Origin: a virus
Taxonomy: Duplodnaviria > Heunggongvirae > Uroviricota > Caudoviricetes
Virus record (IMG/VR): IMGVR_UViG_3300028025_000093
Span: 88,650 to 152,649 of that record
Direction: 5' to 3' (one strand)
DNA length: 64,000 nt
The notes under the pieces are model-generated. The model ran no database searches. It worked only from the letters and a program-made list of their open reading frames with translations, and had not been told where the DNA came from. This document shows positions 18,884-56,684 of this stretch, piece by piece. How positions within the stretch are numbered: position 1 is the stretch's first letter; every line of letters begins with the position of its first letter. Made by a program: the position numbers and the translations under genes.

Positions 18884-18911
18884 TGCTTTAAATTGCAAGG
18901 TGTAGTATAAT
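18884..18911 (+). promoter_or_regulatory. sigma70-like early promoter (TTGCTT-N16-TATAAT) upstream of uvsY
   Basis: 'aCTTGCTTTAAATTgcaaggtgtagTATAAT' belongs to the conserved CTTTACTTTAATT promoter family seen at seven other intergenic sites. Confidence 0.55.
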
Positions 18912-18937
18912 GATAGTTATGTCCATGTGAGGAAATT

Positions 18938-19375
18938 ATGACTTTAAATGAATTGCAAGAAATGTGGGAAACTGATGCTGGGATAGATGATAACTATCTT
19001 GGTGAAAGTTCTGTCGCCACTCCAAAACTCCACGCCAAATATATCAAACTGCTTGTCGGTGCAAAACTCAAGCACACTAAACTTCAATCAGATTATTTGC
19101 TACTGCGCAAAAACAAATTTCGTTTATATCGTGGCGAGTTATCTCGTGATGAATTAACAAATCTTGGTTGGGCTCAGTGGCAAGGTGTTAAGCCATTGAA
19201 GAATGAGATGGATGAATTTTTACAAGGTGACTCTGAGTTAGTCACTATTAAAGTAAAGATTGATTATCTTGAAACAATGATTTATTTTTTAGAATCCGTT
19301 CTAGGTCAAATCAAAGCCAGAGACTGGCAGATTAAAACTGCCGTGGAATGGAAACGATTCTTAGCTGGTATGTAA
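18938..19375 (+). CDS. uvsY: recombination mediator UvsY
   Basis: 145 aa, collinear with T4 UvsY. The C-terminus 'IKARDWQIKTAVEWKRFLAGM' matches T4 'IKSRGFAIKHIQDMRAFEAGK', and the gene is adjacent to uvsW. Confidence 0.7.
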   Translation: MTLNELQEMWETDAGIDDNYLGESSVATPKLHAKYIKLLVGAKLKHTKLQSDYLLLRKNKFRLYRGELSRDELTNLGWAQWQGVKPLKNEMDEFLQGDSELVTIKVKIDYLETMIYFLESVLGQIKARDWQIKTAVEWKRFLAGM

Positions 19376-20856
19376 TGATAAAAATTGAAAAACTAGACGA
19401 AGTCTATGTAAGAGTTTTTAGTGAAGGTTCAATTGAACAAGAACTATCAGACTTCTTTACGTATGAATATCCAGGTGCTAAATTTACACCACAGTTCCGT
19501 GCTAGATTGTGGGATGGTAAAGTACGTTTATACGATCAAATACGTAAAACCCTTTATGTTGGTCTAGTATCATACGTTGAAGAGTTTGCCACCCGCAATG
19601 GGTATGGTATTCAGTACGTTTCCCCAATACACAAAACAAATAATATTACTGCAGATCAAGTGCAAGATTACGCTGCTGCATTAGAACCAATGGGTCACGG
19701 TAAACCTATTGAGATACGTGACTACCAAATTGAAGCAGTGCAAACTGCACTAGATCGTGAAAGAGTATTACTACTATCACCAACAGCGTCAGGTAAGTCA
19801 TTTATTATTTACACAACAATGCGTTGGCATGTTGAGCAAAACCGCAAGTGTATTATTATTGTTCCAACTACTTCTCTTGTTGAGCAGTTGTATACTGATT
19901 TTGAAGACTATTCCTCAGCAAATGGTTGGGAACCATCTATTCACTGTCAAAAATTATATTCTGGGTTTACAAAAGACTTTACCAAGGATGTACTAATTAC
20001 AACTTGGCAATCAGTTTATCTGCAACCAAAATCTTGGTTTAAACAATTTGATGTTATCTTTGGCGATGAAGCACATCAGTTCAAAGCAAAGTCCTTAACC
20101 ACAGTTATGGAAAAGATGGATAATGTTCGTTATCGTATTGGCACAACAGGTACGCTTGATAATAAAAAGATTCATCGTTTAGTTCTTGAGGGTATGTTTG
20201 GTCCAGTGCATCGTGTCACTACAACTAAAGCCCTAATGGAAACCCAGAAGTTAGCCAAGCTAAATATAATGTGCGTGGTTCTTAAGTATAATGAAGAGAT
20301 TCGTAAGGGACGTAAAAATAACACATACCAAGAAGAAATGGATTGGCTTGTTTCTTGTGAACCAAGAAATAAATTTATCCGAAACTTGGCAGTAAAGTCT
20401 AAAGGTAATACGCTGGTACTTTTTCAATACGTTGAAAAACACGGCAAAGTCCTGTACGATCTTATCAAAGAAAAAGTTCATTCTGAAAGAAAAGTATTTT
20501 TCGTTTACGGTGGAACTGAGACTTCAGATAGAGAAGCAATAAGACATATTACAGAAGGTGAACCAGATGCTATTATTATTGCATCGTATGGAACATTTTC
20601 TACTGGAATTAATATACCTTCGATTGAAAACGTAATCTTTGCTAGCCCTTCAAAAAGCAAAATACGTAATCTCCAATCAATAGGTCGTGGGTTACGTTTA
20701 AAAAATGGTAAGACTGAGTGCAACTTATTTGATTTAGCAGATGACTTGCATTGGAAGTCTTGGAAAAACCATACATTAAATCATGCAGCGGAGCGTTACA
20801 AAACATACGCTGAAGAACAATTTGATTTAAAACTAGTAGAGGTTAATTTATGTTGA
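19376..20856 (+). CDS. uvsW: UvsW DNA/RNA helicase (SF2)
   Basis: N-terminal '…FRARLWDGKVRLYD…' followed by 'RDYQIEAVQ…LSPTASGKS' and 'DEAH'. ATG at 19376 overlaps the uvsY stop (ATGTAATGA). Confidence 0.8.
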
Positions 20857-21323
20857 TGGGCGATGAGCATTACGTTATTGTTAAGTTTACTTCAGGTGAA
20901 CAAGTTATGGCTGTCTTGTTAGAAGAAACTATTGAGGATTTAACTATTGTATATCCAATGCAAATTCGTTTGACTCCTATTCTAGATGCTGATGGTGCAA
21001 GAGAACACGTTACAGCAACTCCTTGGAATAAATTTGCAGATGATCCACAAGTGACAATTAATAAAAGAAATGTTCTCTTTATTAAAAATCTCCACCACGT
21101 ACTGATCCCGCATTATACACGTTTAGTTTCTGAGAATGAAGAAACGCAATTAGTGAATAAAAAAGAAAACAGAGCAGAAGATCTTTCTTGGGGAGATGAA
21201 GAGACACAGGAAGAAGTCGATGCATTAAGCAATGAAGAACTTCTAAAGAGAATAAGAATGCTAGAATCTATTGCGGAGAAGGAAGAAACAGTATTCGTTG
21301 AAGGAAACGATACAATTCACTAA
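20850..21323 (+). CDS. hypothetical protein (acidic C-terminus)
   Basis: ORF in line with its neighbours; no recognisable motif. Confidence 0.4.
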   Translation: MLMGDEHYVIVKFTSGEQVMAVLLEETIEDLTIVYPMQIRLTPILDADGAREHVTATPWNKFADDPQVTINKRNVLFIKNLHHVLIPHYTRLVSENEETQLVNKKENRAEDLSWGDEETQEEVDALSNEELLKRIRMLESIAEKEETVFVEGNDTIH

Positions 21324-21413
21324 CAGTTCCGATCAACCCTAACACAGTGAGTTTACCTGTTTTCAAAATAAAAGTAAACTCTAATTATATTGCAGCAATG
21401 CAAAAACTTTTAC

Positions 21414-21442
21414 TTGCCTTTAACTCACTATCAAGGTAAACT
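21414..21442 (+). promoter_or_regulatory. sigma70-like promoter (TTGCCT-N17-TAAACT) upstream of gene 55
   Basis: 'CTTTTACTTGCCTTTAACT…TAAACT' is a member of the conserved promoter family. Confidence 0.35.
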
Positions 21443-21478: not shown

Positions 21479-22039
21479 GTGGCAAATTACATTAACAACG
21501 CTGACTTTTTAGCAGCAATTAAATTATACAAACAGTCTGTATTAGATGCAGAAGCAGCTGGGTTACCGAAACCACAGATTCCACGATATTTGGGAGAGTG
21601 TATTTTAAAGATTGCAACGCATCTTTCTTATAAACCTAACTTTATCAATTATACCTACAAAGATGATATGATTCTTGATGGTATTGAAAACTGCATTAAT
21701 TACTTTGACAACTTTGATCCCAATAAGTCCAGCAATCCGTTTGCGTACTTTACACAAATTATATTTTATGCTTTCTTGCGAAGAATCTCCAAAGAAAAGA
21801 AACACTCTTACATCAAGAACAAACTAATTCAAGATATGCCGTTTGATGCATTTGAATTACAACAACAAGATGAAGACGGACACTTTCATAATGCGTATAT
21901 TGATTTTATGCAAAGCAACAATAACTTTGATAACTCGTTTATCGAAAAGAAAAAAGTAAAGAGTAAAAAACAAAAGTCCAATCTAGATGATTTTATAGGT
22001 GATAGTGATGCACAAATCGATTCGGGATCTGATACGTAA
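21479..22039 (+). CDS. late-transcription sigma factor gp55
   Basis: GTG start with an AGGA RBS. 'NPFAYFTQIIFYAFLRRISKEKK' matches T4 gp55 '[23 protein letters not shown]'. The gene is followed by the gp47/gp46 homologues, as in T4. Confidence 0.8.
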   Translation: MANYINNADFLAAIKLYKQSVLDAEAAGLPKPQIPRYLGECILKIATHLSYKPNFINYTYKDDMILDGIENCINYFDNFDPNKSSNPFAYFTQIIFYAFLRRISKEKKHSYIKNKLIQDMPFDAFELQQQDEDGHFHNAYIDFMQSNNNFDNSFIEKKKVKSKKQKSNLDDFIGDSDAQIDSGSDT

Positions 22040-23189: not shown

Positions 23190-24241
23190 AGGTAGCCATT
23201 ATTACTGACCAACACTTTGGTGCTAGGAATGACAGCATCGCATTCTTAGACTTCTATGAGAAATTCTATGAAAATACTTTCTTTCCTGCTCTTGATTCTG
23301 CTGGCATTACTACCGTACTTGTTCTTGGCGACACATTTGATAGACGCAAGTATGTAAATTTCTATGCACTTGACAGAGCCAAAAAAATGTTCTTTAATGA
23401 ATTAGAAGAACGTGGTATACAAGTACATATGCTGGCAGGTAATCATGACACGTATTTTAAAAATACCAATGACGTGAATTCACCTGACTTATTGCTGCGT
23501 GAGTATAGCAACATTAATGTAATTGATCACCCAACTACAATTAATGTAGATGGTACAGACATCTGTATGATGCCTTGGATTTGTCCTGAGAATTATCAAT
23601 CATCTCTTGACGAAATGAAAACAACAAAAGCTGAAATCTGTATGGGTCACTTTGAGATCGCAGGTTTTGCAATGTATAGAGGAATGGAGTCACATGAAGG
23701 ACTTTCTAAAGAAGTGTTTGATAAGTTTGATCTTGTCTTTTCTGGTCATTATCATCATAGAAGTGATGATAAGCACATCTACTATCTCGGGAATCCGTAC
23801 GAACTTACTTGGCAAGACTATAACGATCCCAGAGGGTTTCACTTGTTCGACACAACTACAAGAGGACTCGAGTTCATTTGCAATCCTTATACAATGTTCG
23901 CAAGAATCGAGTACGACGATAAGGAAAGCGAGCCCATCGAGATCGATGCCGTTGATTTAAAAGAAAAGTACGTTAAACTAATTGTAACAAATAAAACTGA
24001 CTTTTATAAATTTGACCGATTTATACAAAAGCTGTATAATAAAGGTTGCCATGAAATTAAGATATTGGAAGATATGTCTGAGTTTGAAGATGGCGAAGTT
24101 GGTGAAGAAATTAACTTAGAAGATACAGTTAGTGTTCTCTCGCATTATATTGATAGTATTCAAACTGATGTTGACAAAGAACAAATTAAGAATTATATGA
24201 GAACACTTTATACGGAAGCCGTGAACCAAGAGGTAGTATAA
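23186..24241 (+). CDS. recombination endonuclease subunit gp47 (Mre11-like)
   Basis: TTG start overlapping the upstream stop, with an AAAGGTAGG RBS. Calcineurin-like phosphoesterase motifs 'DQHFG', 'GDTFD' and 'GNHD' are present. Confidence 0.8.
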   Translation: MKVAIITDQHFGARNDSIAFLDFYEKFYENTFFPALDSAGITTVLVLGDTFDRRKYVNFYALDRAKKMFFNELEERGIQVHMLAGNHDTYFKNTNDVNSPDLLLREYSNINVIDHPTTINVDGTDICMMPWICPENYQSSLDEMKTTKAEICMGHFEIAGFAMYRGMESHEGLSKEVFDKFDLVFSGHYHHRSDDKHIYYLGNPYELTWQDYNDPRGFHLFDTTTRGLEFICNPYTMFARIEYDDKESEPIEIDAVDLKEKYVKLIVTNKTDFYKFDRFIQKLYNKGCHEIKILEDMSEFEDGEVGEEINLEDTVSVLSHYIDSIQTDVDKEQIKNYMRTLYTEAVNQEVV

Positions 24242-26261: not shown

Positions 26262-26288
26262 CCCTCAGTTCTTGAGGGTTATTTTTCC
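26260..26288 (+). terminator. terminator hairpin (AACCCTCA…TGAGGGTT + T-run)
   Basis: Follows the gp46 stop. The same 'TAACCCTCA…TTGAGGG' hairpin recurs at 56622. Confidence 0.6.
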
Positions 26289-26317
26289 CCTTTAAAATCA
26301 ACAACTTACGCAGTCGC

Positions 26318-26346
26318 TTTACTTTAATTCAGATCTAAGGCATAAT
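26318..26346 (+). promoter_or_regulatory. sigma70-like early promoter (TTTACT-N17-CATAAT); first copy of a promoter/5'UTR cassette
   Basis: 'TCGCTTTACTTTAATTCAGATCTAAGGCATAATTCTACTATTGAATGGAGATTA' is near-identical to 28784-28838. Confidence 0.55.
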
Positions 26347-26371
26347 TCTACTATTGAATGGAGATTATACT

Positions 26372-26536: not shown

Positions 26537-28727
26537 TATGAACTCTAAAATAAATGCAGTTGACTTAACAGCAAAACTTCTTGCCACAGAAAACCTAAGC
26601 GTACGTCGTGCTCGATCACGTACTGCATCTTTTGATATTAAATCTCGGGTGCTAACTCTTCCAATGTGGAAAGACATGACACCAGAAGTTGAGGGTATGT
26701 TGGTTGGTCACGAAGTTGGTCATGCTCTATGGACTGGCGATGAGTACATGAAACCGATCCAAGAAAACCCAAAGATGCATTCTTACTTGAATGTGTTGGA
26801 AGACGTACGTATTGAGAAATTGCTCAAACGTAAATATCCAGGTATTCGTAAGACCATGAATGAGGGTTACAAACAACTCAACGAAAAGGACTTCTTTGGT
26901 GTTGGTAAAACTGATCTGACTTTAATCAATCTTATTGACAGAATTAACCTTTATTACAAAGCAGGTTTTACTTGTGGTGTTCAGTTTACACCTGAAGAAA
27001 AGTCATTCGTAGTTCGTGCTGAAAAGACAGAAACTATTGATGAGGTAGTTACCCTTGCCAAAGAAATTTATGAATACTCTCTGGAGCAAGCAAAAAAGAA
27101 TGCTGGTCAACGTATGCTCGAAGAACAACAAGAGCGAGAAGAAGACGATGAGGAATCGGGTGAGTATGATGACCTAGATGAAATTGATGAAGACTTCGAT
27201 AACATCGATGATTCAGATATGGACAAGACAGGTGAAACTCAAGACGAAGATGCTTTTGAGGGTGAAGAAAAGAAACAATCTTCTTTGGGCAAAACCAAAA
27301 CTGAAGAAGAAAAGAAACAAGAAATTGTTGACAAAGAAATGGAATCCGTGACGGATAAAACTCTGGAAGAGAAACTTGCTGAATTGGCAGATGAATCAAC
27401 TGAGTTCCACTACCATCAGCTGGACAGCGATTATGTCGTTGACCACGTTATTGGTTACAAAAAGATTTTGTCTGATGTTGCCGAGTCGTTTGTAAATATG
27501 GAACACAATGTTAAATCTATTGATGACTTTAAACCAGAATCTTCACGTATCGTGAATTATCTCATCAAAGAATTTGAGATGAAAAAGTCTGCAACAATGT
27601 ATAAACGTGCTCAGACTTCAAAGATGGGTTCTTTGGATATGAAGAAAGTTTGGTCTTACAAGTTGAATAGCGATTTGTTCAAACGTGTAACTACTTTCCC
27701 GCAAGGTAAAAATCACGGTATGATTTTCTTGCTTGACTGGTCAGGTTCGATGGATATGATGTTGGATGACACTATCAAACAAGTTGTTACCTTGGCAATG
27801 TTCTGTCAACGTGCTCAGATCCCGTATCAGGTATTTGCCTTTAGTAGTCAATACGACATCTTTACTCAGCACACTGATGCATATAGTAAAATGCGTGCCA
27901 AGCAGACTGCTATCTACGCAACTGAAGATACTAAGATTCTGAATAATGCTGTGAACAACTTTGCTTTACTTGAGTTGTTTAGCAACAAGATGAGTAATGT
28001 TGAGTTCAACACAATGTGTAAGTATGTGATGGATCGTTACTTCCGCTACGCCAGAAATGGTGAATACAATACTGGTGGTACTCCACTAAATGAAGCATTG
28101 GCATATATGGTTGATTATATTCCAAAATTCATCAAAGCCCACAACGTTGAGAAAATGTCATTCATTACTCTGACGGATGGTGAGGGTGCAGCTTTGTATC
28201 CTGTGTATCGTCAATCTCTCGATTCAGTACGCAATGAACGTGTCCTTGACGAAAAGACTGGTGAGTACAGATACAATCGTATTCAGATGAAACACTTCTT
28301 ACAAGATCCTATGACTAAAAAGTCTTATGAATTGCCTAAGCATGGTAGTGGTCAAAGCGAAGTATTGTTGCGTATGATTAAAGATCGTTACAATGTTAAT
28401 AGCGTTGGATTTTATATCGTGCCAAATACACGTCGTTACTTGTGTCAAGCAGTTCGTGCAAACTTGCCTGGATTTGCTGGTTCTGAATATAACCTTGTTG
28501 ACGTATGGCGTAAAGAGTTCCGTGACAATGGATTTGCATCTGTTAAAAACACTGGACGTGATGACTTGTTTATTATCCCTCAGAATAAACTTGCTGTTGA
28601 AAATGAACAACTTGAAATTCTTGCAAACCAAACGGCAAAGCAAATTTCAAATAAGTTCAGTAAAATGATGTCCTCCAAGAAGACTAGCCGAGTGCTGCTC
28701 AACAAGTTTATTGGTTACGTTGCGTAA
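26537..28727 (+). CDS. CobT-like von Willebrand factor A domain protein
   Basis: MIDAS motif 'LLDWSGSM' and an acidic central region. It is paired with a downstream CobS-like MoxR ATPase, as in marine T4-like phages. ATG at 26537 follows a GGAGAATAAT RBS. Confidence 0.7.
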
Positions 28728-28740
28728 GTCATTGATTTAT

Positions 28741-28767
28741 AAGGGGAAAATAATCCCCTTATTTTTG
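28741..28767 (+). terminator. rho-independent terminator (AAGGGGA-aaataa-TCCCCTT + TTTTT)
   Basis: Hairpin plus a T-run after the CobT-like stop. It is part of the repeated element 'CATTGATtTATAAGGGGAAAATAATCCCC', which is also found at 37891-37920. Confidence 0.7.
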
Positions 28768-28788
28768 GTAGGGAATGCAAGAAATCGC

Positions 28789-28817
28789 TTTACTTAAATT
28801 CAGATATCAGGCATAAT
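28789..28817 (+). promoter_or_regulatory. sigma70-like early promoter (TTTACT-N17-CATAAT); second copy of the cassette
   Basis: Near-identical to 26314-26366, including the GGAGATTA RBS. Confidence 0.55.
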
Positions 28818-28841
28818 TATACTATTGAATGGAGATTAATT

Positions 28842-29039
28842 ATGAATGAATTTACTACGTTTTCTGCTGGTGTTGCTGACGCTACTCTTGACTTGTTGGC
28901 TGGTCCTGTGTTCGCTGGTGGTCCTACTGAAAAACCTGAATTGGCGTCGCTTGACTTTATCGTGAATGAATTTCGTTTACGTTTAGGTTGTTCTGATGCT
29001 TATCTTGCTGGTTATTTGTCTGTGCTGTTCTCTGAATGA
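28842..29039 (+). CDS. small hypothetical protein (65 aa)
   Basis: ATG 6 nt after the cassette's GGAGA RBS. Confidence 0.35.
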   Translation: MNEFTTFSAGVADATLDLLAGPVFAGGPTEKPELASLDFIVNEFRLRLGCSDAYLAGYLSVLFSE

Positions 29040-30210: not shown

Positions 30211-30211
30211 C

Positions 30212-30240
30212 TTTACTTTAATTATGAATCGTAGTAAACT
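30212..30240 (+). promoter_or_regulatory. weak sigma70-like promoter (TTTACT-N17-TAAACT)
   Basis: 'AACTTTACTTTAATTAT…TAAACT' is a member of the conserved promoter family. Confidence 0.3.
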
Positions 30241-30278
30241 AATGGTTGTGAATTAAATACTTGAAAAGGAAATATATT

Positions 30279-30680
30279 ATGTTGAAATTTAATGATCTGT
30301 CTAAGTCTCAGAAGAAATGTATCATTGCTTTGATTGAAGCTAACCCTGCCCTGAAAACCACAGGAAAGATTAGTTTGAAAGAAGTTGTAGCTATTACCCA
30401 AGATCTTGCTGCCAAACGTACTGCTGGTGCACCAAAGATTGGTTACCCAAATTGGTTGTTTAAGCACAACAAGATTGAGCGTGGTATGTATGAACTTCCA
30501 CTTCCAACTGAGCAAGATCTTTCTGATTATGCGCAAGGTTCCGTAAAGCAACCTAAGGTGTCTAAATCTAAAGCTGCTGCTGCAACTCGCCTAGAGAAAA
30601 TCATTGAGTCATCCCCTGTTCATACTCAGGATGTTGAAGACTTCAATGCGATCTTACGTGAGAATGGTATCACAGTATAA
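30279..30680 (+). CDS. hypothetical protein
   Basis: ATG preceded by the repeated translation-initiation sequence TTGAAAAGGAAATATATTATG. Confidence 0.4.
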   Translation: MLKFNDLSKSQKKCIIALIEANPALKTTGKISLKEVVAITQDLAAKRTAGAPKIGYPNWLFKHNKIERGMYELPLPTEQDLSDYAQGSVKQPKVSKSKAAAATRLEKIIESSPVHTQDVEDFNAILRENGITV

Positions 30681-36385: not shown

Positions 36386-36398
36386 ATAGGAGCACACA

Positions 36399-46132: not shown

Positions 46133-46135
46133 AAC

Positions 46136-46164
46136 TTTACTTATATACATATATCACGTATAAT
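46136..46164 (+). promoter_or_regulatory. sigma70-like promoter (TTTACT-N17-TATAAT) upstream of uvsX
   Basis: 'AACTTTACTTATATAC…TATAAT' is a member of the conserved promoter family. Confidence 0.45.
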
Positions 46165-46192: not shown

Positions 46193-47263
46193 ATGAGCAT
46201 TCTAGATAAAATTAAAAAGAACAGTACGATTAAAGAATCTGCTATTCTATCACAATCAAAGTTCTTTCAAAAGAAAGATATGATTCCTACTTCAGTCCCA
46301 ATGATCAATGTGGCTCTTTCTGGTCGTCTTGATGGTGGTCTAACTCCTGGACTGACAATGTGGGCTGGTCCAAGTAAACACTTTAAGACAGCATTCTCTT
46401 TGTTAATGGCAAAAGCATATATGGAAAAGTATGAAGATGCTGTCTTGCTATTTTATGATTCAGAGTTTGGTACTCCTCAGTCTTACTTTGATTCATTTGG
46501 TATTGATACTGAGCGTGTTATTCATACTCCAATCACTGACGTTGAGCAATTGAAGTTTGACATTATGAATCAGCTTGGTGGTATTGAACGTGGTGATCAC
46601 GTAATTATCGTTGTAGATTCTATTGGTAATCTAGCTTCGAAGAAAGAAGTTGATGATGCACTTGATCAAAAGTCTGTTGGTGATATGACTCGTGCAAAAC
46701 AAATGAAGTCGTTGTGGCGTATGGTTACTCCCCATCTAAACCTTAAAGACATTCCTTGTGTGGTTGTGAACCATACTTATATGGAAATTGGTTTATATCC
46801 AAAAGCAATCGTTGGTGGTGGTACTGGTTCTTACTACTCTGCTGACAATATTTTTATTCTTGGTCGTCAGCAAGAAAAAGAAGGAACTGAGATTGTTGGT
46901 TACAATTTTATTATTAACGTAGAGAAGTCAAGATATGTGCGAGAAAAATCTAAGATCCCTGTTAGCGTATCTTTCGATGGTGGTATTAGCCGTTGGTCTG
47001 GCTTACTCGATGTTGCTCTTGAATCTGGACATGTCATCAAACCTAGCAATGGTTGGTATCAAAAGGTAGATAAAGAAACTGGTGAGATGGATGATAAAAA
47101 GTATCGCATCAAAGAAACTGATACTAAAGAGTTTTGGATGCCAGTTCTAAAGCAGAAATCTTTTATTGACTTTGTCAAAGGTAAGTATACCGTTGCATCT
47201 ACTGATATCTTAAAAGATGAAGACATCGATGCAGAACTTGCATTAATTGATGATGAAGAATAA
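46193..47263 (+). CDS. uvsX: RecA-like recombinase UvsX
   Basis: Collinear with T4 UvsX. RecA-fold Walker A 'GPSKHFKT'. Confidence 0.85.
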   Translation: MSILDKIKKNSTIKESAILSQSKFFQKKDMIPTSVPMINVALSGRLDGGLTPGLTMWAGPSKHFKTAFSLLMAKAYMEKYEDAVLLFYDSEFGTPQSYFDSFGIDTERVIHTPITDVEQLKFDIMNQLGGIERGDHVIIVVDSIGNLASKKEVDDALDQKSVGDMTRAKQMKSLWRMVTPHLNLKDIPCVVVNHTYMEIGLYPKAIVGGGTGSYYSADNIFILGRQQEKEGTEIVGYNFIINVEKSRYVREKSKIPVSVSFDGGISRWSGLLDVALESGHVIKPSNGWYQKVDKETGEMDDKKYRIKETDTKEFWMPVLKQKSFIDFVKGKYTVASTDILKDEDIDAELALIDDEE

Positions 47264-47582
47264 ACCTTACGTTGTCGTTGAAAACAAGCAAGGGTTTGAT
47301 GCGATAAAGTTGACCGAAAATCCATTTGAGGGTATAATTTATACTTATGGTAGAGTTTCCTTTGATGAAGATGACGCAACTGGGTACATCAAGCTGAAGT
47401 TTGATTACGAGATTTTAGATTATGCGGATAAGGTAATTACTAATAAACAACCATTTGAAAAATACATTGGTGATATATTACAAGAACTTATTCACGAAGG
47501 TATTGAAAATAACAATTTAACATACGCAGGTGGTATTGATGAGAATAGAACAGGCGATCCTATCGAACCTGATTCACAATGA
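47247..47582 (+). CDS. hypothetical protein
   Basis: ORF between uvsX and the gene 41 homologue. Confidence 0.35.
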   Translation: MMMKNKPYVVVENKQGFDAIKLTENPFEGIIYTYGRVSFDEDDATGYIKLKFDYEILDYADKVITNKQPFEKYIGDILQELIHEGIENNNLTYAGGIDENRTGDPIEPDSQ

Positions 47583-48945: not shown

Positions 48946-50253
48946 ATGGTAAAAATTGTTGTAGCAGAAAACAAGTATGATGCCAAACATATGTTGGGAC
49001 AATTTCCAACTGAAGCAGATTACGATCTTTTAATTGAAGAAGATATGGACGTTTATATGCCTGAAGTTCCAGGACATCCTGAACTGACATATACCGAAGA
49101 ACGTATTGTTCTGAAGTTTCGCAAGAACTACTTTACAAAAGAACAACAAGAGCAAGCATACGTTGGTTTGAGAGAAGCTGCGGTTGAATCTCAGAATCGT
49201 GGTATTGCTGCTGGTCCACGTCAAGGTTCATTGGGTAATCGCCAGTGGGTAACAGATTACGAATACGATATGCTTGACGTATTCCTAAAGCCAACTGAAA
49301 ACTTGTTTGGTGACGATCCTGTTGAGGTTGTTCGTAACAAACATAAGAACATTACTGCCAGTGCTTCTAATCGTGCACGTGTTTGGTCAGTAGATGGTGT
49401 CAAGAAAGAGAACTTTGTATTTGACACTTGGGTTGATACTATTCGTAAGATGACACCTGATGCTGCCAAACAAGAAGCAGAACGTGTAGCTGAAGATCTT
49501 ATCTGTGCCACAACTTACGCAAACTCAGTTCACTCTGGCATTGCTGGTTGGTTCGATCGTTATCCACGCATTCCGTATGGTCGTGCCACAAGTTATACTC
49601 GTGATAATTTTGACAAGTTTAAGATGGCGTTTCCTTTCTTACAAACTCTATCGCAAGGTTTCAAAGAATTGTTACCTTGGAGATACGGCAATCAAATGGC
49701 TGCAGCCAATAAACTAGATCCAAACTATTTGGTTCCAGGTACACCATTTACCACAATTACCGTAAACAAAACTTTCCGTACTGCTTGCCATTATGATGCT
49801 GGTGATTTAACCACAGGTTTGTCTAATCTACTAACCTTGTCAAATACTGGTAACTATTCTGGTTGTTATCTGGTTGCACCTGAGTATCGTGTGGCAGTTA
49901 ATGTACGTCCAGGAGATTTGTTGTTGATTAACAATCACGAAGTTATGCACGGCAATACTGAAATTAAAGTGCACGATGAAATCTCAGAACGCATTAGCTT
50001 GGTTTGCTACTTCCGTGAAAAGATGCTTGAGCTAGGTTCCAAAGAATACGAAGATACCAGATATCAATTCGTTGAAGATCGTCGCAAGAATAAAGAACAT
50101 CCTGAACACAGAGCATTGTGGAATGGTGTATCTCCAGGTATGTGGGAGTCTGACGAGTGGTACGATTACCTACGTCATAAACTTGGTGAAGACCAACTGG
50201 TGAAGTATCACCCAGAATCACAAAAGGCTAACTCACTAGAAAGTTTCTTTTAA
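48946..50253 (+). CDS. 2OG-Fe(II) dioxygenase (DSBH fold); candidate DNA-base (thymine) hydroxylase
   Basis: 'ACHYDAGD' (His-282, Asp-284), a distal 'NHEVMHGNTE' (His-331/335) and 'ERISLVCY' (RxS). It is the first gene of a cluster with a kinase, a transferase and an amidoligase. Confidence 0.5.
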   Translation: MVKIVVAENKYDAKHMLGQFPTEADYDLLIEEDMDVYMPEVPGHPELTYTEERIVLKFRKNYFTKEQQEQAYVGLREAAVESQNRGIAAGPRQGSLGNRQWVTDYEYDMLDVFLKPTENLFGDDPVEVVRNKHKNITASASNRARVWSVDGVKKENFVFDTWVDTIRKMTPDAAKQEAERVAEDLICATTYANSVHSGIAGWFDRYPRIPYGRATSYTRDNFDKFKMAFPFLQTLSQGFKELLPWRYGNQMAAANKLDPNYLVPGTPFTTITVNKTFRTACHYDAGDLTTGLSNLLTLSNTGNYSGCYLVAPEYRVAVNVRPGDLLLINNHEVMHGNTEIKVHDEISERISLVCYFREKMLELGSKEYEDTRYQFVEDRRKNKEHPEHRALWNGVSPGMWESDEWYDYLRHKLGEDQLVKYHPESQKANSLESFF

Positions 50254-50930
50254 TGTGCGCAGTCATTGGAGCCATCCTGCAGAAACCAACTCTGCAGGAT
50301 TTTACTATGTTGCATCGTGTATTCCTAGAGTCCAAGATTCGAGGTATGCACGCCACTGGAATATCCTATGTCAAGAATGACCGAGTTGTTACTGAGAAGC
50401 ACCCTGTTCCTGCCAATGAGTTTCCTTTTAATTTTGCAGAGTATGTTAATGAAGATGGGAATCTCTACCTTATTGGTCACTGTCGTTACAGCACTAGCGA
50501 TCTTGAGTTTAATCAGCCAATTGGTAATGATAAACACTCAATAGTTCACAATGGAGTTATCACTCAAGAACTACCAGAACGCTGGAAAGAATTATATAAT
50601 TATGAGTGCACGACCAAGAATGATAGTGAGTTAGTCTTACACTCTGATTCGCCACTTGAAGAGTTTCCTGATATGTCTATGGGTGTTTGTGAATTAACCA
50701 GTGACAAGAAACTACTTGCTTATCGTAATGGCAAACGTCCATTATACTTGACTAGTATTTCAAATGGGTGTATAATTACTTCTACTGCTGATATTATTAA
50801 ACGTGCAGAAGTGGAAGGGTTTCCTATTAACCTTTTATCAAATCATTACACTACATTTGATAGTGACCTAACTATGATTGTTGAAAAGGTTAATATTGAT
50901 GCTGTTGATTACCAACTAATAGGTGACTGA
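50253..50930 (+). CDS. class-II (Ntn) glutamine amidotransferase domain protein
   Basis: N-terminal catalytic 'MCAVIG', plus 'IRGMHATG', 'GHCRYSTSD' and 'VHNGVITQ', which match the PurF/GlmS/AsnB GATase-II signatures. Confidence 0.75.
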   Translation: MCAVIGAILQKPTLQDFTMLHRVFLESKIRGMHATGISYVKNDRVVTEKHPVPANEFPFNFAEYVNEDGNLYLIGHCRYSTSDLEFNQPIGNDKHSIVHNGVITQELPERWKELYNYECTTKNDSELVLHSDSPLEEFPDMSMGVCELTSDKKLLAYRNGKRPLYLTSISNGCIITSTADIIKRAEVEGFPINLLSNHYTTFDSDLTMIVEKVNIDAVDYQLIGD

Positions 50931-51805
50931 TGAATTATCCAAAAGAAAAATTTACATACGGTATGGAAATAGAGTGGGGTGATGTTCCTCGCTCTTTTTC
51001 AATTCCAGAACATCTTGGTACTTGGGAATACTCCGAGCGAGATATTATTAACCTACGAGATCCATACAAGAACGTATGTGCAGATCCGTTGGGTGAAGAT
51101 CCGCCATTTGGTGGAGAGATTAATACCAAGCCAACTCGTACTTGGGCTGGTCAAGTAGAACGATACTTTGAACTACAGAAACTGTTTGAAGATGCTGGTC
51201 ATCCACCAACAGTAGGTGTTACTGCACATACACACATACACTGTCGCATTCCTGGATTGCGTGATGATATCGATGCACTAAAACGATTGACCAAATACAT
51301 CAAAGAAAACCAAGCAACAACAGTTGATCGTGTTTATGGTTTCTATGACCACAATCAAATGAAAGGTGCCAAAGGTGCCAAGATGTATCTAAAGTTTGAT
51401 GGTGGTCGTACAATGCCAGATTATATGAGCGATAATATTATCAATCTAGCCACTGACTTCAACTCTTTCATTAAGATGCACGCTGCAGGTAAAGATGGTG
51501 TTTCAATGGGTCGCCCATTCCGATATGCCATTAATATGTACGCACTCAAACACATTGATACTGTGGAGTTTCGTTTATTCCGTGGTACACTGGATAAAGT
51601 AGAATTGGAATCTTGCTTCCGTTTCGTTGAAGACTTCCTTGATGCTGCGCTAAATGATGGACCAAGTGTTGACGATCTGATCAATACCAATGGTTATAAG
51701 TTTCCACCGATGCAGTGGGATCTTGCTCAATTCATTGGATGGGAAAAGACAAAGCACCCAGAAGATCGTGGTGAGAAAGTGAGAACTCTTGTTGAGGTTG
51801 AGTAA
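50930..51805 (+). CDS. glutamine-synthetase-like amidoligase family protein
   Basis: 'FTYGMEIEW' N-terminal region and overall size typical of phage and bacterial amidoligases. Assigned from my recollection of family signatures. Confidence 0.5.
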   Translation: MNYPKEKFTYGMEIEWGDVPRSFSIPEHLGTWEYSERDIINLRDPYKNVCADPLGEDPPFGGEINTKPTRTWAGQVERYFELQKLFEDAGHPPTVGVTAHTHIHCRIPGLRDDIDALKRLTKYIKENQATTVDRVYGFYDHNQMKGAKGAKMYLKFDGGRTMPDYMSDNIINLATDFNSFIKMHAAGKDGVSMGRPFRYAINMYALKHIDTVEFRLFRGTLDKVELESCFRFVEDFLDAALNDGPSVDDLINTNGYKFPPMQWDLAQFIGWEKTKHPEDRGEKVRTLVEVE

Positions 51806-51887
51806 ATGTTCAAGATGTGATTTTGTAAATAGTATATCTACCGATAAGGGAGATAACTTTGCAAAGACATTTATTGCCAAAGCAGAT

Positions 51888-52340
51888 ATGCAAGACCAAT
51901 GGGAGTATTGCATAGGTGCTTGGGATGGTAGCGAATTAACAGCTGCCATTATAACTACCATATCCAAGAATAAACCCCACGTGGCTAACCTACAACTCTT
52001 GCATACCTTTGTAAAACACCGAGGAAAGGGAGCTGCCAGGATCCTCTGCGAGGACTCTTTAAAGCGTGCTAGAGCGTCTGGAGCGACTTACTTTAGGGTA
52101 TCCTCAGAGAAGTCTGCCGTAGGCTTCTACGAGCGTCTAGGGTTCCGATTCTGGGGTTCCCAAAAGAGTGGTTGCCAGCTATCCATCTTTAGGATAGGGG
52201 GAGATACCTTCCTACAGGGCGACTACGACCTTTCTGACACCACCATCAATAAAGCGGTCAACCGAAAGGGTAAGGGAGGTTGTACGACCCTCTACGACCT
52301 TGCAAAGAGCCAAAATGGGGTCAAAATAGACGATTTTTGA
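51888..52340 (+). CDS. GNAT-family N-acetyltransferase with anomalous GC-rich composition
   Basis: 'FVKHRGKGAARIL' acetyl-CoA-binding motif followed by 'GFYERLGF'. About 50% GC with rare AGG/CGA/GGG codons, against about 37% GC for the rest of the window. The ORF track uses TTG at 51789; the first ATG is at 51888. Confidence 0.55.
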   Translation: MQDQWEYCIGAWDGSELTAAIITTISKNKPHVANLQLLHTFVKHRGKGAARILCEDSLKRARASGATYFRVSSEKSAVGFYERLGFRFWGSQKSGCQLSIFRIGGDTFLQGDYDLSDTTINKAVNRKGKGGCTTLYDLAKSQNGVKIDDF

Positions 52341-52354
52341 GTCAAATTTAGCTT

Positions 52355-52382
52355 TACTTTAATTGCAAAATAAGGTATAATA
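52355..52382 (+). promoter_or_regulatory. sigma70-like promoter (TTTACT-N16-TATAAT) driving the HNH gene
   Basis: 'AGCTTTACTTTAATTgcaaaataaggTATAAT' is a member of the conserved promoter family. Confidence 0.5.
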
Positions 52383-52408
52383 AAGGTTGGATAATTGAGG
52401 AATTTATT

Positions 52409-52945
52409 ATGAGAAATTTAAACCTTGAAGAACTAATAGAATTTAATTTTAATTCTGACTTGGTGAACCAAGAAGAATCAAGACGTGAGTACATATCTGA
52501 AAAAAATCAAGAAAATCATAAGACTTGGGGTGATACTAAAGAGCGTTGGATAAAGCGACATCTTTATAAAGGGACACAAAGTAATGCTAGAGAAAAGAAA
52601 GTAGCCAATACTTTATCTCCAGTAGCCTTAAGTAAAATGTGGGATTTACAAAAAGGTAAATGTGCTATTAGTGGAGTGGAGTTAGTTTGGGGTGAAACTG
52701 ATAACATCCGAAGAGCATCAGTTGATCAAATATATCCATCAGGTGGCTATACATTAGAAAATACATGGCTAGTTTGTTCAGGAATAAATTTTTTGAAAAA
52801 TAAATTTTCACTGACAGATCTTCTTGAGATATACCCACAAGCAATAAAATCTTCTTTATTTAACGAGGTATATGAAGCTACTTTAAATGATAAAGTACCT
52901 ACACACAATAGTCCTATTATAAACGACCTTCAATTACTCACTTAA
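52409..52945 (+). CDS. putative HNH-family homing endonuclease
   Basis: 'GKCAISGVEL…SVDQIYPSGGYTLENTWLVCSGINFLKNK' resembles the HNH_3-type core. AT-rich, with its own promoter, inserted inside a functional gene cluster. Confidence 0.4.
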   Translation: MRNLNLEELIEFNFNSDLVNQEESRREYISEKNQENHKTWGDTKERWIKRHLYKGTQSNAREKKVANTLSPVALSKMWDLQKGKCAISGVELVWGETDNIRRASVDQIYPSGGYTLENTWLVCSGINFLKNKFSLTDLLEIYPQAIKSSLFNEVYEATLNDKVPTHNSPIINDLQLLT

Positions 52946-53964
52946 TGGACTATAGACTATCACAAAATCGTAGAGAAGCATTCATACGCTGGTATGCGTG
53001 GTCGTTGAAGTATGACGACTGCGACCCAGCAGTATGGGCGACTAACTATATAAACGATCGTTACGAGCATAATGACGAGCAGAAACTTTGGTTGTGCTGG
53101 CTATACGGTAATACATACTATCTTCCAACTGCTTGGGTATTGATGAACGAGTTTCCCGACTATGAACTGGCAACTGTTGATCGTATGACTCAGTGGAATA
53201 CTACCAACTACAAGCGACTGCGTTATCAAACTGACACAAAGTGGAACAAGGGACATTTGCCAACCATGTTCGAATCTTATCAAAAGTATATTGGCAATCA
53301 AACTCAACGAGAAAAGATAGAGTCATTATATGGAAACAATGAGAAGGCAAACTTTGATAACTTGTGGGAGAGCGTTAAGTCTAGCTTGCATAAGTTTGGT
53401 CGTTACAGTACTTGGTTTTATCTTCAGCATCTTAAGCATACCGCTGGTGTTCGGATCGATCCTACTTCTCTCATGCTGGACGATTATGATGGCTCTCGCT
53501 CTCATCGTAATGGATTACTTTATGCCCTCGGACAAGAAGACAGTGTGGATAGAAAACTCACTGCAATGGAGTATGCAAATCTTGAGTCACAAGCCCAAGA
53601 GATTCTTGCAGAGACGAAAGCAAGATTTCCAGAACTCATATCGTCAATAGATTATTTCACTATGGAAACGTGTCTGTGTTCTTATAAGAAAATCTTTAGA
53701 GAACACCACGGAAGATACCTTGGGTATTACCTAGATCGTCAAGCTGAAGAGATTATCAAAGTTGAAGGCGATGGATGGTATGGAATTGATTGGGATGTGC
53801 TTTGGCAATCCCGAGAAGAAACTATTGATTTACGTCTAGATCACAAACGTGGTATAGACAAAGAAAAGTTTAAGTATTTTATCAATACAGGTAAACTTGA
53901 TAATCTCGAGTGGATGTTTGATGATGAACAGCGACAACTTATTGGACTAGAGGAATTTTTATGA
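52945..53964 (+). CDS. hypothetical protein; candidate aGPT-pyrophosphorylase-like transferase of the base-modification cluster
   Basis: Assigned from gene context only: it is translationally coupled (ATGA) to the downstream small P-loop kinase and sits in a cluster with a dioxygenase, a GATase and an amidoligase. I recognise no sequence motif with confidence. Confidence 0.3.
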   Translation: MDYRLSQNRREAFIRWYAWSLKYDDCDPAVWATNYINDRYEHNDEQKLWLCWLYGNTYYLPTAWVLMNEFPDYELATVDRMTQWNTTNYKRLRYQTDTKWNKGHLPTMFESYQKYIGNQTQREKIESLYGNNEKANFDNLWESVKSSLHKFGRYSTWFYLQHLKHTAGVRIDPTSLMLDDYDGSRSHRNGLLYALGQEDSVDRKLTAMEYANLESQAQEILAETKARFPELISSIDYFTMETCLCSYKKIFREHHGRYLGYYLDRQAEEIIKVEGDGWYGIDWDVLWQSREETIDLRLDHKRGIDKEKFKYFINTGKLDNLEWMFDDEQRQLIGLEEFL

Positions 53965-54500
53965 GAAAATTGATTGCAGTTGGTGGTTCTCCAGGAACAG
54001 GTAAAACTACCTTATTCCGTAAGTTTATGGAAGGTAAAACTTGGGAGCGAGTTGAGCCCAAGAAAATGTTACCTGCACTCTACTGTGCAGAATTGGATTT
54101 GTATATCCTAGGTAAGTACGAAGATGGCGAAACATTCGCTGGCACAGATCGTTTAAGTATGGCTGTTCAACCAGTGGCTCAGGAATTCGTCAAGGAAACT
54201 ACTTCAAACATCTTATTTGAAGGCGACCGAATCTTTAACCAGTCTTTCCTAGAGTTTGCCATGGGATTGCCCGATACTGATCTACAAGTGATTTTCCTAA
54301 AGGTTCCCAAGGAAATGCTTGAGCAAAGGTATAAGGATCGTGGATCCGACCAATCGGAGATATTCCTAAAGGGTCGCAATACTAAATATAATAACCTATT
54401 GTCTAATTTTGAGTTGATGCCATATATTACTGAGTTTGTGAATACTAACTTAGAGGAGCAGGGGAAAGTTCTAACCTTTTTAGAAGGTCAATTAGGATAA
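53961..54500 (+). CDS. small P-loop kinase; candidate 5-hydroxymethyluracil DNA kinase (5-HMUDK-like)
   Basis: Walker A 'GGSPGTGKTT', about 180 aa. The assignment as a DNA-base kinase is from context. Confidence 0.45.
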   Translation: MRKLIAVGGSPGTGKTTLFRKFMEGKTWERVEPKKMLPALYCAELDLYILGKYEDGETFAGTDRLSMAVQPVAQEFVKETTSNILFEGDRIFNQSFLEFAMGLPDTDLQVIFLKVPKEMLEQRYKDRGSDQSEIFLKGRNTKYNNLLSNFELMPYITEFVNTNLEEQGKVLTFLEGQLG

Positions 54501-55228: not shown

Positions 55229-55246
55229 TAGTCTAATGGGATTACT

Positions 55247-56623
55247 ATGGCAACAGATTACTCAAAACTAGCAGCATCCGCCAAAAAGATGGTAGATTAT
55301 CTTTCCACCAAAGGTGTTAAGGTAACTTTAAAATCTTCAAGGTATCAAGCTCAAATTAAAGCAGTTGAGATTGCATTCTCAGGCACACTTGACGCATTCT
55401 TAAAAAGTGTTGGTATAACTGCAACAGTTACTGATCTTAGTGTCACTGAAGAAAAAGCAATTTCTGGTAAGTACAAAGCCAAGCTAATGACTCTTACCAA
55501 AGTACTCGGCACTATTGCCAAGGGCGAAACCTTTTACATTGTAAATACCTATACTGAAAAGGGTACGCTAAAAACAAAAGATTTAGCACCAGAAAAGTTT
55601 AATCTCACTACTAGCAAATATACAACGCTAGAATCTCTAGACAAAGCTGTGTTGAATGGTATCAAAGAAAACGCTACCCTAGCAGCAGACATTAAAGTTG
55701 TTCTAACAGAATTATATAAAACAGTTAGCACAAACAAAAACCCCAAAGATATTATTCCAATGACTGCGCCAGCAAAGAAATCATTTGCTGGAGTTAAGCC
55801 ACAAGACAAACAAGCTATTGGTAAAGACTTTGGTGAAGTTCTTTCTATGCGTTGGTACTTGACTCAACCATTTGCTTCTACTTGGCAACAAGCATTCTTT
55901 TCAGATATTAGTAATGAAGCATTGGTAGACTTTGTTGTTATGAAGAAATCTGGCAAAGAAACTATTCGTACTGATATATCAGCAAAGTTTGAAGAAGGTG
56001 CTGCACCATCCATTGGTGCCATTGTTGATAATATTGATAAAGTTTACAAAGCTCCAAATAAAGAAGAAGCTGTTGTAATTAACGTACTAAAAGCATTGGC
56101 TGGCAAAAACGATAATACATCAACTAAGATTTTAGCTGCCATGAAATCTCTTAATCTGCCAGCGTATACCACATTAAAGAAAACTATTGGTGCTAAAGGC
56201 AACTTTACTATTCAAGATATTTCTGCGCATATTCAACAGATTGCCAAAGTAGGTAAAACTGATAAAGCAAGAATTAAATTATTTAAATCTACATATGAAG
56301 AGTTTTATAATGTGCTTGGTAAAAACGCAAGTGATGATTCTGTTAATATTGTAATGACACCAACTACATATAAAAAGTATTATTCATTGGTAATGGCACC
56401 TATGGGTTATGCGTTAGTTGATTATATGAATAAACAACCACAATATCAAGAAGTGTTAAATAAGATTAGTCAGCATATGAAAACTGAACAAGTATATCTA
56501 TACTTCTCTGGTGATAATCTAGAGTTTAAGAAAAAGTTATTTTCAAAAGCTGAGTTTAAATTTGCTTACGGAGCCAACGCCAAAGACTCTGATAATACAG
56601 GCATCAAGTTCTTTATGAAATAA
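55247..56623 (+). CDS. hypothetical Lys-rich protein (458 aa)
   Basis: Long ORF; no recognisable motif. Confidence 0.4.
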   Translation: MATDYSKLAASAKKMVDYLSTKGVKVTLKSSRYQAQIKAVEIAFSGTLDAFLKSVGITATVTDLSVTEEKAISGKYKAKLMTLTKVLGTIAKGETFYIVNTYTEKGTLKTKDLAPEKFNLTTSKYTTLESLDKAVLNGIKENATLAADIKVVLTELYKTVSTNKNPKDIIPMTAPAKKSFAGVKPQDKQAIGKDFGEVLSMRWYLTQPFASTWQQAFFSDISNEALVDFVVMKKSGKETIRTDISAKFEEGAAPSIGAIVDNIDKVYKAPNKEEAVVINVLKALAGKNDNTSTKILAAMKSLNLPAYTTLKKTIGAKGNFTIQDISAHIQQIAKVGKTDKARIKLFKSTYEEFYNVLGKNASDDSVNIVMTPTTYKKYYSLVMAPMGYALVDYMNKQPQYQEVLNKISQHMKTEQVYLYFSGDNLEFKKKLFSKAEFKFAYGANAKDSDNTGIKFFMK

Positions 56624-56645
56624 CCCTCACTATTTGAGGGGAATA
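56622..56645 (+). terminator. terminator-like hairpin (CCCTCA-ctattt-TGAGGG), related to the 26260 module
   Basis: Shares 'TAACCCTCA…TTGAGGG' with the hairpin at 26260. The T-run is weak. Confidence 0.4.
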
Positions 56646-56655
56646 CATAAATCGC

Positions 56656-56684
56656 TTGACTTTAATTGCAAGATAGGGTATAAT
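56656..56684 (+). promoter_or_regulatory. consensus sigma70 promoter (TTGACT-N17-TATAAT)
   Basis: 'CGCTTGACTTTAATTgcaagatagggTATAAT' is the best match to the consensus within the promoter family. Confidence 0.65.

Follow-up and report, generated by a model that had tools for sequence, protein, structure and literature searches.

Predicted sigma70 promoters with a conserved spacer block in an uncultured T4-like phage, best seen as a lineage-specific form of T4-type early promoters

Introduction

Early promoters of T4-like phages carry GTTTAC at -36..-31, an A-rich tract at -40..-44 and a GT-rich stretch 5' of -12 (PMC1524935), with those of T4 showing extra consensus regions besides UP, -35, TGn and -10, and T4 middle promoters are without the -35 hexamer (PMC2988021). 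In the cassettes named PeSL, a stem-loop, an AT-rich region, a sigma70 promoter, a Shine-Dalgarno sequence and an ATG follow one another, with the promoter in T4 and PST taking the form TTTACW-N17-TAYWAT (PMC4122927). In E. coli, sigma70 promoters favour TGG ahead of the -10 hexamer and sigmaS promoters favour C-13 (PMC3141248). Here we describe a family of sigma70-like promoter sites in a stretch of tailed-phage DNA of 64,000 nucleotides (nt), hereafter the window (IMG/VR record IMGVR_UViG_3300028025_000093, positions 88,650 to 152,649), for which an earlier note, made from the letters alone, had proposed nine sites and a phage-specific, possibly activator-dependent promoter class. Judged by their sequences and those of relatives, the sites are best regarded as a form, specific to this lineage, of T4-type early (PeSL-type) sigma70 promoters heading prereplicative units of an uncultured T4-like clade.

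Results

A stringent, co-oriented promoter class

With a search pattern confined to the hexamers (TT[GT][AC]C[ACT]-N17-[TC]ATAAT, TAAACT or TATACT), chosen against circularity, we observe 16 sites on the + strand and 2 on the - strand of the window, compared with 0.39±0.65 per strand and a maximum of 3 in 300 dinucleotide-preserving shuffles. The earlier note had named an enrichment no higher than that of AT-rich intergenic DNA as the result that would speak against the family, and the excess over the shuffles points the other way. Matches to CTTTACTTTAATT with at most 2 mismatches are also in excess (15 versus 6.0±2.4 in shuffles, with 0 of 100 shuffles reaching 15). In a k-mer contrast of intergenic against total DNA, TTTAATT (p = 7e-7) and CTTTAATT (p = 5e-7) rank first, the latter being the 8-mer most enriched in intergenic DNA, with six of its eight + strand copies lying in the intergenic 5.5% of the window. 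Furthermore, the three largest families returned by an unbiased direct-repeat search of 18-58 kb are these promoter sites. Scanning loosely for generic sigma70 promoters gives no excess over shuffles (76 versus 64±8.6 and 53 versus 62±8.2); the enrichment is limited to the stringent, co-oriented promoter class.

All nine sites proposed earlier are present, with two of them shifted by 1-2 nt (the -35 element starts at 18883, not 18884, and at 52353, not 52355), and the -35 and -10 variants quoted for them are correct; the spacer, given as 16-17 nt, is exactly 17 nt at every site. The full tally adds one full-motif site at 38515 and six further canonical TTGAC(A/T/C)-N17-TATAAT sites at 24012, 32407, 40584, 42909, 47310 and 50748 (Table 1). 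The + strand sites run in gene direction and are confined to the replication module (18.8-56.7 kb), with no site in 1-18 kb or past 57 kb of the window, and short leaders with a Shine-Dalgarno sequence and an ATG come after them. Within the hexamers of 14 aligned window sites, TT at -35/-34 and A-11, A-9 and T-7 are found in 14/14 and C-31 in 13/14, so that with the 17-nt spacers and the excess over shuffles the designation as sigma70-like promoters holds. Some positions outside the hexamers are also significantly fixed, the same 14 sites having G-13 in every case, A-26 in 13, T-29 in 12, and C-36 and T-25 in 11 each.

When 185,579 bacterial genomes were scanned for TTKACTTTWATT-N10-GTATAAT, the matches listed were scattered single ones, mostly in Firmicutes and Patescibacteria, and yielded neither a host clue nor usable enrichment. 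Searching the literature for the exact motif 12-mers brought up unrelated barcode papers only.

Two promoter forms and a constrained spacer block in relatives

The close relatives of this phage are several hundred IMG/VR contigs (UvsX and CobS at 79-95% amino acid identity), from which 160 loci, 80 in a uvsX set and 80 in a cobS set, were taken, amounting to 1.96 Mb together with the window. The hexamer-only pattern matches here 451 times on the coding strand versus 21 times on the other strand, and 204 unique sites are left once near-duplicates are removed. At positions that were not part of the search, these sites show G-13 in 90%, C/G at -36 in 73%, A-26 in 71%, T-17 in 67% and T-29 in 66%, and there is an A-rich tract at -44..-37, with A reaching 45-58% at -44..-39. 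The tract is UP-like and separate from the extension for which the earlier note had suggested an UP-like element; that extension lies inside the spacer, downstream of the -35 hexamer, and is no such element.

The block TT(A/T)ATT (TTWATT) at -29..-24 is present with at most one mismatch in 88 of the 204 sites (4.1 expected from composition), and when ten other registers of these spacers are tested alike, each has 0-10 such sites. We distinguish two promoter forms, because the mismatches to TTWATT are distributed bimodally: 62 sites match exactly, and another peak lies at 4 mismatches. In the extended form (n = 88), ~45 nt follow a stereotyped pattern, with C-36 in 61%, T-30 in 83%, C-23 in 65%, T-17 in 80% and G-13 in 98% of sites and, at the expected start distance, T-1 in 80% and A+1 in 62%; its layout reads A-rich -44..-37, C/G-36, TT(G/T)ACT, TT(A/T)ATT at -29..-24, C-23, T-17, G-13, TATAAT, T(-1)A(+1). 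The plain form (n = 95) consists of the A-rich tract, TTGACA, N17 and (G)TATAAT, with little else kept. In the 204-site set, positions -30/-29 covary (TT 111, AA 46, TA 4), and with T-15 at 23% and G-14 at 46% there is no extended -10 (TGn), the place of which is taken by G-13 at 90-98%. A second -10 hidden inside TTWATT was considered and rejected, the words TTTAAT, TTAATT and TAATTC never combining A at position 2 with T at position 6; readings as a Pho box, NtcA site or H-NS site were likewise dropped, there being one half-site-like word only, without repeat or dyad.

The share of sites with the extension differs between -35 variants, being 31/37 for TTTACT and 13/20 for TTGCCT, compared with 29/64 for TTGACT and 9/63 for TTGACA. 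A trade-off of the extension against -35 quality appears well supported by these counts.

With respect to conservation at single loci, the promoter upstream of cobS (window 28789) could be followed in 46 distinct orthologous sequences, in which TTWATT is kept. Mean pairwise identity amounts to 0.84 at -29..-24, 0.85 in the -35 hexamer and 0.93 in the -10 hexamer, versus 0.42 at -22..-14 and 0.31 at -60..-46, the parts that drift. This contrast is not due to relatedness, because all positions share one phylogeny. A-26 and T-25 are found in 46/46 and G-13 in 45/46 sequences, none of these being in the search pattern, and T-35, T-34 and C-31 are invariant in the 46 even though the pattern allowed T at -31. 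The upstream tract is also retained (A-44 in 38/46, A-42 in 41/46, A-40 in 35/46). Purifying selection on -29..-24 and on G-13 is well supported.

Similar patterns are seen elsewhere. Four orthologues of the 37950 site (loci L074, L038, L014 and L004) keep TTAATTC, with the remaining spacer varying, and a promoter stands at the same place before uvsX in relatives sharing the upstream gene. At the 50748 position, three relatives (L033, L051 and L004) have TTTACT/TTGACT followed by TTAATT/TTATTT, and L069 has a near-identical promoter before its homologue of the DUF6267 open reading frame (ORF). In the uvsX loci, footprints anchored on orthologues could mostly not be obtained at 37950, 38515 and 52353, whose small downstream ORFs are poorly conserved or out of synteny. 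Because the conservation beyond the hexamers is real, register-specific and under selection in relatives, the phage-specific class suggested by the earlier note does exist, as a lineage-specific one.

Terminator-promoter cassettes

Stem-loop terminators stand directly before 26318, 28789, 37950 and 56656 (4 of the 10 extended window sites), and the full PeSL order, from stem-loop to ATG, is present at these four. At 26318, the stem-loop CCCTCAGTTCTTGAGGG (26262-26278) lies ahead of the promoter, and a conserved 5' untranslated region with ribosome-binding site (ATTGAATGGAGATTA) comes after it. Hairpins of -10 kcal/mol or stronger are found upstream of 33% of the unique sites, versus 10% of shuffles. 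We observe two families of intergenic stem-loop terminators, ATAAGGGGA..TCCCCTTAT and CCCTCA..TGAGGG, at 18280-18303, 28739-28762, 37266-37287 and 37895-37915 and also at 26262-26278 and 56624-56640; all four + strand copies of AAGGGG are intergenic, and likewise all four of CCCCTT.

Several of these cassettes are duplicated. A unit of 54 nt (26314-26367 and 28785-28838; repeat family D3) is 93% identical through the ribosome-binding site, a second pair, 37 nt long (52351-52387 and 56654-56690; D2), is 92% identical, the terminator parts at 28721-28758 and at 37882-37919 (D13) share 84% identity, and the sites 32407, 42904 and 47305 (D4) have 38 nt in common at 74% identity. Leader/ribosome-binding-site cassettes are also repeated before unrelated genes, with GAAAAGGAAATATATTATG at 30246-30281 and 38249-38284 and ACTATTGAATGGAGATTA at 26347-26367 and 28818-28838, and because of this the repeated units span the whole distance from terminator to start codon. 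An ORFan (28842-29039) that lies exactly between the 28789 promoter and cobS is present in 2 of the 160 relatives, and the distance from promoter to cobS varies among relatives from 56 to 359 nt. The position of this ORFan would fit PeSL-type shuffling, and we infer recombination at these cassettes.

A minus-strand promoter upstream of gp55

The minus-strand extended site at 21378 points antisense into ORF 20850-21323 and uvsW. It is one of two minus-strand pattern matches in the window and the sole one with a position kept in relatives, in which 10 of 19 minus-strand matches (1.9 Mb) fall 89-105 nt upstream of gp55. Downstream of it lies a conserved G-rich stretch, GGTGTTAGGGTTGATCG (21325-21345). 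The minus strand has no ORF there, and neither Rfam nor tRNA scans gave a match, be it in the window or in this antisense promoter region. The site could give rise to antisense or small RNA, or to a transcript that primes an origin, as at T4 oriF/oriG.

MotA-like words and candidate regulators

The earlier note had likened the conserved -35 context to the MotA boxes of T4 middle promoters. At the permitted 11-13 bp from the -10 hexamer, the best scores against wwwTGCTTtA are 1-6 of 10, with 7-9 of 10 reached only at 14-15 bp. The word TTTACTTTA is one base apart from the MotA box TTTGCTTTA, giving an ACTT centre that is known from T4 P46 (PMC2988021); it also occurs in T4's own MotA-independent early promoters, and site 18883 has an exact TGCTTTA. 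Given the wrong register (14-15 bp, not 12±1 bp) and the retained -35 hexamer, we reject the MotA-box reading. Homologues of MotA, AsiA, Alt and Mod were not found by tblastn in the window and the 80 uvsX-set loci, nor was a MotA/AsiA domain found by Pfam on 50 window ORFs, and the suggested activator dependence is not supported.

The only DNA-binding candidate seen is a winged-helix ORF of 89 amino acids (30764-31033; Pfam HTH_39, 7e-6) within the operon headed by the 30212 promoter. It is found in 79 of the 80 cobS-set relatives at a median identity of 64% and was not found in the pieces of Syn9 or C48C1 examined. A PDB sequence search gave no match for it, and it has no annotated function.

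Phage context and inventory of sites

The source is an uncultured T4-like myovirus syntenic with cyanomyoviruses. Essentially all long ORFs of the window are on the + strand, and those of 1-18 kb, judged by position and by synteny with Syn9, are probably structural genes. A T4-type replication/recombination module occupies 18.9-57 kb, with uvsY, uvsW, gp55, gp47-like and gp46-like nucleases, a 729-amino acid ORF, cobS, gp45, gp44, a clamp-loader small-subunit-like ORF (Phage_clamp_A), regA, Hsp20, MazG, DNA ligase, gp43, uvsX and a gp41-like helicase, and its gene order is that of the cyanomyovirus Syn9. There is no close isolate: gp43 is at most 56% identical to cyanophage polymerases, UvsX at most 63% identical to phage C48C1 and to Stenotrophomonas/Xanthomonas phages, and gp55 is 62% identical to Syn9 gp55 (E = 9e-59).

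Table 1. Promoter sites of the window and genes of the DNA hypermodification set; promoter spans run from -36 to -7
Feature	-35 at	Sequence	Span	Strand	E value	Context
Extended promoter	18883	C TTGCTT TAAATT ..G TATAAT	18882-18911	+		26 nt before uvsY ATG (18938), then uvsW (UvsY, UvsW Pfam matches)
Extended promoter	21378	TTTACT TTTATT ttgaaaacag G TAAACT	21350-21379	-		back to back with gp55 promoter
Extended promoter	21414	C TTGCCT TTAACT ..G TAAACT	21413-21442	+		before gp55 (21479-22039, GTG start), then AAA ATPase, gp47, gp46
Canonical promoter (candidate)	24012	TTGACC-N17-G TATAAT	24011-24040	+		within 3' part of gp47-like ORF; before ORF 24241 and gp46
Extended promoter	26318	C TTTACT TTAATT C..G CATAAT	26317-26346	+		before ORF 26372 and 729-amino acid ORF
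Extended promoter	28789	C TTTACT TAAATT C..G CATAAT	28788-28817	+		after terminator 28739-28762; before ORFan (28842-29039) and cobS (29074-30210)
Extended promoter	30212	C TTTACT TTAATT ..G TAAACT	30211-30240	+		begins right after cobS stop codon; before ORF 30279, winged-helix ORF 30764-31033, dATP/dGTP diphosphohydrolase-like ORF, SPFH protein
Canonical promoter	32407	TTGACA-N17-G TATAAT (12/12 matches)	32406-32435	+		before gp45 (32471), 2OG oxygenase, gp44, Phage_clamp_A ORF, regA
Extended promoter	37950	C TTGCCT TTAATT C..G TATAAT	37949-37978	+		two stem-loops ahead: 37843-37867, and ATAAGGGGA..CCCC hairpin within 37882-37919
Extended promoter	38515	C TTGACT TTAATT C..G TATAAT	38514-38543	+		overlaps end of ORF 38282-38518; before small ORFs, MazG, DNA ligase
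Canonical promoter (candidate)	40584	TTGACA-N17-G TATAAT (12/12 matches)	40583-40612	+		within 3' end of ligase gene
Canonical promoter (candidate)	42909	TTGACT-N17-G TATAAT	42908-42937	+		within exoribonuclease-like ORF, 190 nt before DNA polymerase gp43 (43099)
Intermediate promoter	46136	C TTTACT TATATA ..G TATAAT	46135-46164	+		before uvsX (46193)
Canonical promoter (candidate)	47310	TTGACC-N17-G TATAAT	47309-47338	+		within ORF 47250-47582; before gp41-like helicase (47539)
Canonical promoter (candidate)	50748	TTGACT-N17-G TATAAT	50747-50776	+		within glutamine amidotransferase-like ORF
Extended promoter	52353	C TTTACT TTAATT G..G TATAAT AAAGGT	52352-52381	+		before endonuclease VII-like ORF, amino acid:DNA transferase, P-loop kinase
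Extended promoter	56656	C TTGACT TTAATT G..G TATAAT AAAGGT	56655-56684	+		stem-loop CCCTCACTATTTGAGGG (56624-56640) ahead; before DUF6267 ORF
Tet/JBP dioxygenase			48946-50253		7e-26	
Glutamine amidotransferase-like ORF			50253-50930			
GNAT acetyltransferase			51888-52340			
Amino acid:DNA transferase			52945-53964		1e-22	
P-loop nucleotide kinase 3			53961-54500			

At two of the sites the ATG, that of the DUF6267 ORF (56691) and that of ORF 37985, starts exactly 7 nt past the -10 hexamer, which is the predicted start site, and this leaderless-like layout is kept in L069, L074 and L038. No alternative start was seen for 56691; for 37985, a Shine-Dalgarno sequence followed by an in-frame ATG (38009) leaves no need for leaderless translation, the appearance of which probably results from the conserved T-A-T start motif.

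Also within the replication module lies a DNA hypermodification gene set (48946-54500; Table 1). The phage DNA is probably hypermodified, which may affect the reading of its promoters.

A 141-nt intergenic stretch after the regA-adjacent ORFs (36258-36398) is without a promoter-like site; it is GC-richer and possibly structured, has a hairpin and T-run at its end, and gave neither an Rfam nor a tRNA match. The T4 late consensus TATAAATA has no copy anywhere in the window. CTAAATA(A/T) occurs in 11 copies, all on the + strand (3970, 4169, 9637, 12037, 14795, 18315, 20260, 37304, 54382, 58500 and 63164), with several of them 12-41 nt ahead of gene starts (3998, 12064, 18341, 37316, 58541), and is probably the gp55-dependent late promoter of this clade.

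Discussion

Probable reading by the host polymerase and alternatives

We think it likely that a host sigma70-type polymerase reads these promoters without a phage factor. The extension may be read by the polymerase itself, through DNA shape or through contacts of sigma region 4 and neighbouring parts, and would then add binding energy or a favourable geometry that makes up for a weaker -35 hexamer, a compensation as is thought for the extra consensus positions of T4 early promoters. G-13 would plausibly bias recognition to the housekeeping sigma factor, and the extended sites, where they stand after terminators and before a short Shine-Dalgarno leader, would act as PeSL-type terminator-promoter cassettes at the heads of units. 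The predicted timing is prereplicative (early/middle), since the promoters drive gp55, uvsY/W/X, gp46/47, gp45/44, gp43 and gp41. Three points weigh against this reading. The conservation of A-26/T-25 is base-specific and stronger than AT-richness or DNA shape predicts, with no established sigma70 contact there, which leaves room for a sequence-specific protein at -29..-24. The activator-gene screen covers 64 kb of this genome and relative pieces of 5-21 kb. In addition, the extension is absent from Syn9 and C48C1, and for this reason it is not required for sigma70 recognition in the wider group.

That AT-rich intergenic DNA produced the motif by chance has next to no probability in our view: the loose sigma70 scan finds no enrichment over shuffles, and the pattern also turns up sporadically in many, mostly AT-rich, bacterial genomes among the matches listed, but 16 sites against 0.39 expected, the ratio of coding-strand to opposite-strand matches in relatives and the positions kept ahead of orthologous genes are at odds with it. 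A likeness beyond the hexamers that has no function, and that stems from common descent and recombinational homogenisation of mobile, duplicated terminator-promoter cassettes, would be in line with the duplication of whole cassettes (pairs of 93%, 92% and 84% identity), the rare ORFan exactly between promoter 28789 and cobS, the variable promoter-cobS distance and the PeSL-mediated exchange documented in T4-like phages (PMC4122927). Homogenisation should, however, keep the whole spacer alike, whereas the orthologues drift at -22..-14 and hold -29..-24; TTWATT is furthermore restricted to one register, and whether a site has it correlates with -35 quality. We judge such a purely historical origin very unlikely; shuffling probably explains the spread of the cassettes and not which positions stay fixed.

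The extended class might also be factor-dependent, with a phage DNA-binding protein reading the -30-centred block (CTTTAATT) and activating or timing the promoters; the candidates would be a MotA analogue or the winged-helix protein, and the arrangement would parallel T4 sigma appropriation functionally, without motA/asiA. The conserved block -36..-24 is centred at -30 as a MotA box is, extended sites match wwwTGCTTtA at 7-8 of 10 at 14 bp with the ACTT centre of T4 P46, and site 18883 has the exact word. Moreover, the invariance of A-26/T-25 resembles base-specific readout, the bimodal site population suggests two recognition modes, and the winged-helix ORF accompanies nearly all cobS-set relatives and was not found in the extension-less Syn9/C48C1 pieces. 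Despite these points we regard factor dependence as unlikely. Sigma region 4 still appears to read the -35 hexamer, because T-35, T-34 and C-31 are invariant at 17 bp; the MotA-box-like words lie outside the 12±1 bp register and are found equally in T4 MotA-independent early promoters; the searches by tblastn (window and uvsX-set loci) and Pfam (50 window ORFs) gave no MotA or AsiA; and the motif is without dyad symmetry. The winged-helix protein is without annotated function or solved-structure relative, and its co-occurrence with the motif rests on one clade. That C-TTKACT-TTWATT (-36..-24; K = G or T) is the site of a clade-specific early phage protein working with host sigma70 to separate or time phage promoters, for which the winged-helix ORF is one possible candidate, seems to us quite unlikely; if true, it would mean that a T4-like clade without motA/asiA had arrived independently at a MotA-like solution. 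The phage's Tet/JBP-based hypermodification might also act on the conserved GC at -37/-36, in which case a modified base would belong to the promoter signal.

On the reading as T4-type early promoters served by the host polymerase, the rule C-TTKACT-TTWATT-N10-G-TATAAT can be used in annotation to mark candidate transcription units in a widespread uncultured T4-like clade. The family would also be a natural experiment in which six spacer positions beside the -35 hexamer, together with position -13, are constrained as tightly as the hexamers, and the trade-off with -35 quality bears on how sigma70 holoenzymes read spacer DNA.

Comparison with known promoter systems

Among cyanophage-related genomes, Syn9 has a few canonical TTGACA-N17-TATAAT sites, one of them before gp55, and C48C1 has many canonical sites at syntenic positions (gp55, gp47, gp45, gp43); both lack the extension, and in neither of them is G-13 fixed. 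The extended class is thus confined to the clade of the window. In Syn9, host-like promoters are reportedly what drives the middle genes.

The MotA/AsiA middle promoters of T4 resemble the present family in serving the same kinds of genes (uvsX, uvsY, 46/47, 45, 43, 41), in a conserved block near -30 and in the word CTTTA, which is common to the MotA box TGCTTtA. They differ in that the family described here retains the -35 hexamer, has its box-like words 14-15 bp and not 12±1 bp from the -10 hexamer, and comes with no motA/asiA found in the window or the 80 uvsX-set loci. With PeSL the family shares the composite order, the high-identity repeats around the genome and the presence of an ORFan beside one cassette. 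Unlike PeSL, a clear upstream hairpin is seen at only 4/10 extended window sites and at about one third of the sites in relatives, and cassettes here lie also inside the core replication module, besides next to small ORFs.

The same hexamer-only approach applied to 79 kb of T4 yields 16 early-strand sites, compared with 2 on the opposite strand, with G-36 and T-33 in 16/16, TTTAC, AA/TT at -30/-29, an A-rich -44..-39 and T-15 G-14 G/A-13. These sites agree with the literature on T4-like early promoters, and we assign the family described here to the T4 early-promoter architecture. The features in common are the sigma70 -35 and -10 hexamers set 17 nt apart, a -35 hexamer of the form TTTAC(T/A), conservation at -36, AA/TT at -30/-29, an A-rich UP-like tract at ~-44..-38, G-rich positions just before the -10 hexamer, consensus positions outside the hexamers and the location at the head of prereplicative transcription units. 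In contrast to T4, C outnumbers G at -36, where the T4 sites have G throughout, position -33 is often G, a fixed G-13 takes the place of TGn, and the TT(A/T)ATT block with C-23 is present, which is not in the 16 T4 sites examined; furthermore, homologues of Alt, ModA and ModB were not detected in the window and the 80 uvsX-set loci. The closest analogue is thus the T4 early promoter and not the middle promoter, and no new kind of regulatory system is revealed. Stereotyped strong phage promoters are familiar, spacer positions constrained like hexamers are unusual, and the T4 early-promoter/PeSL organisation, as far as these predicted promoters go, reaches into the cyanophage-related branch of the T4 superfamily.

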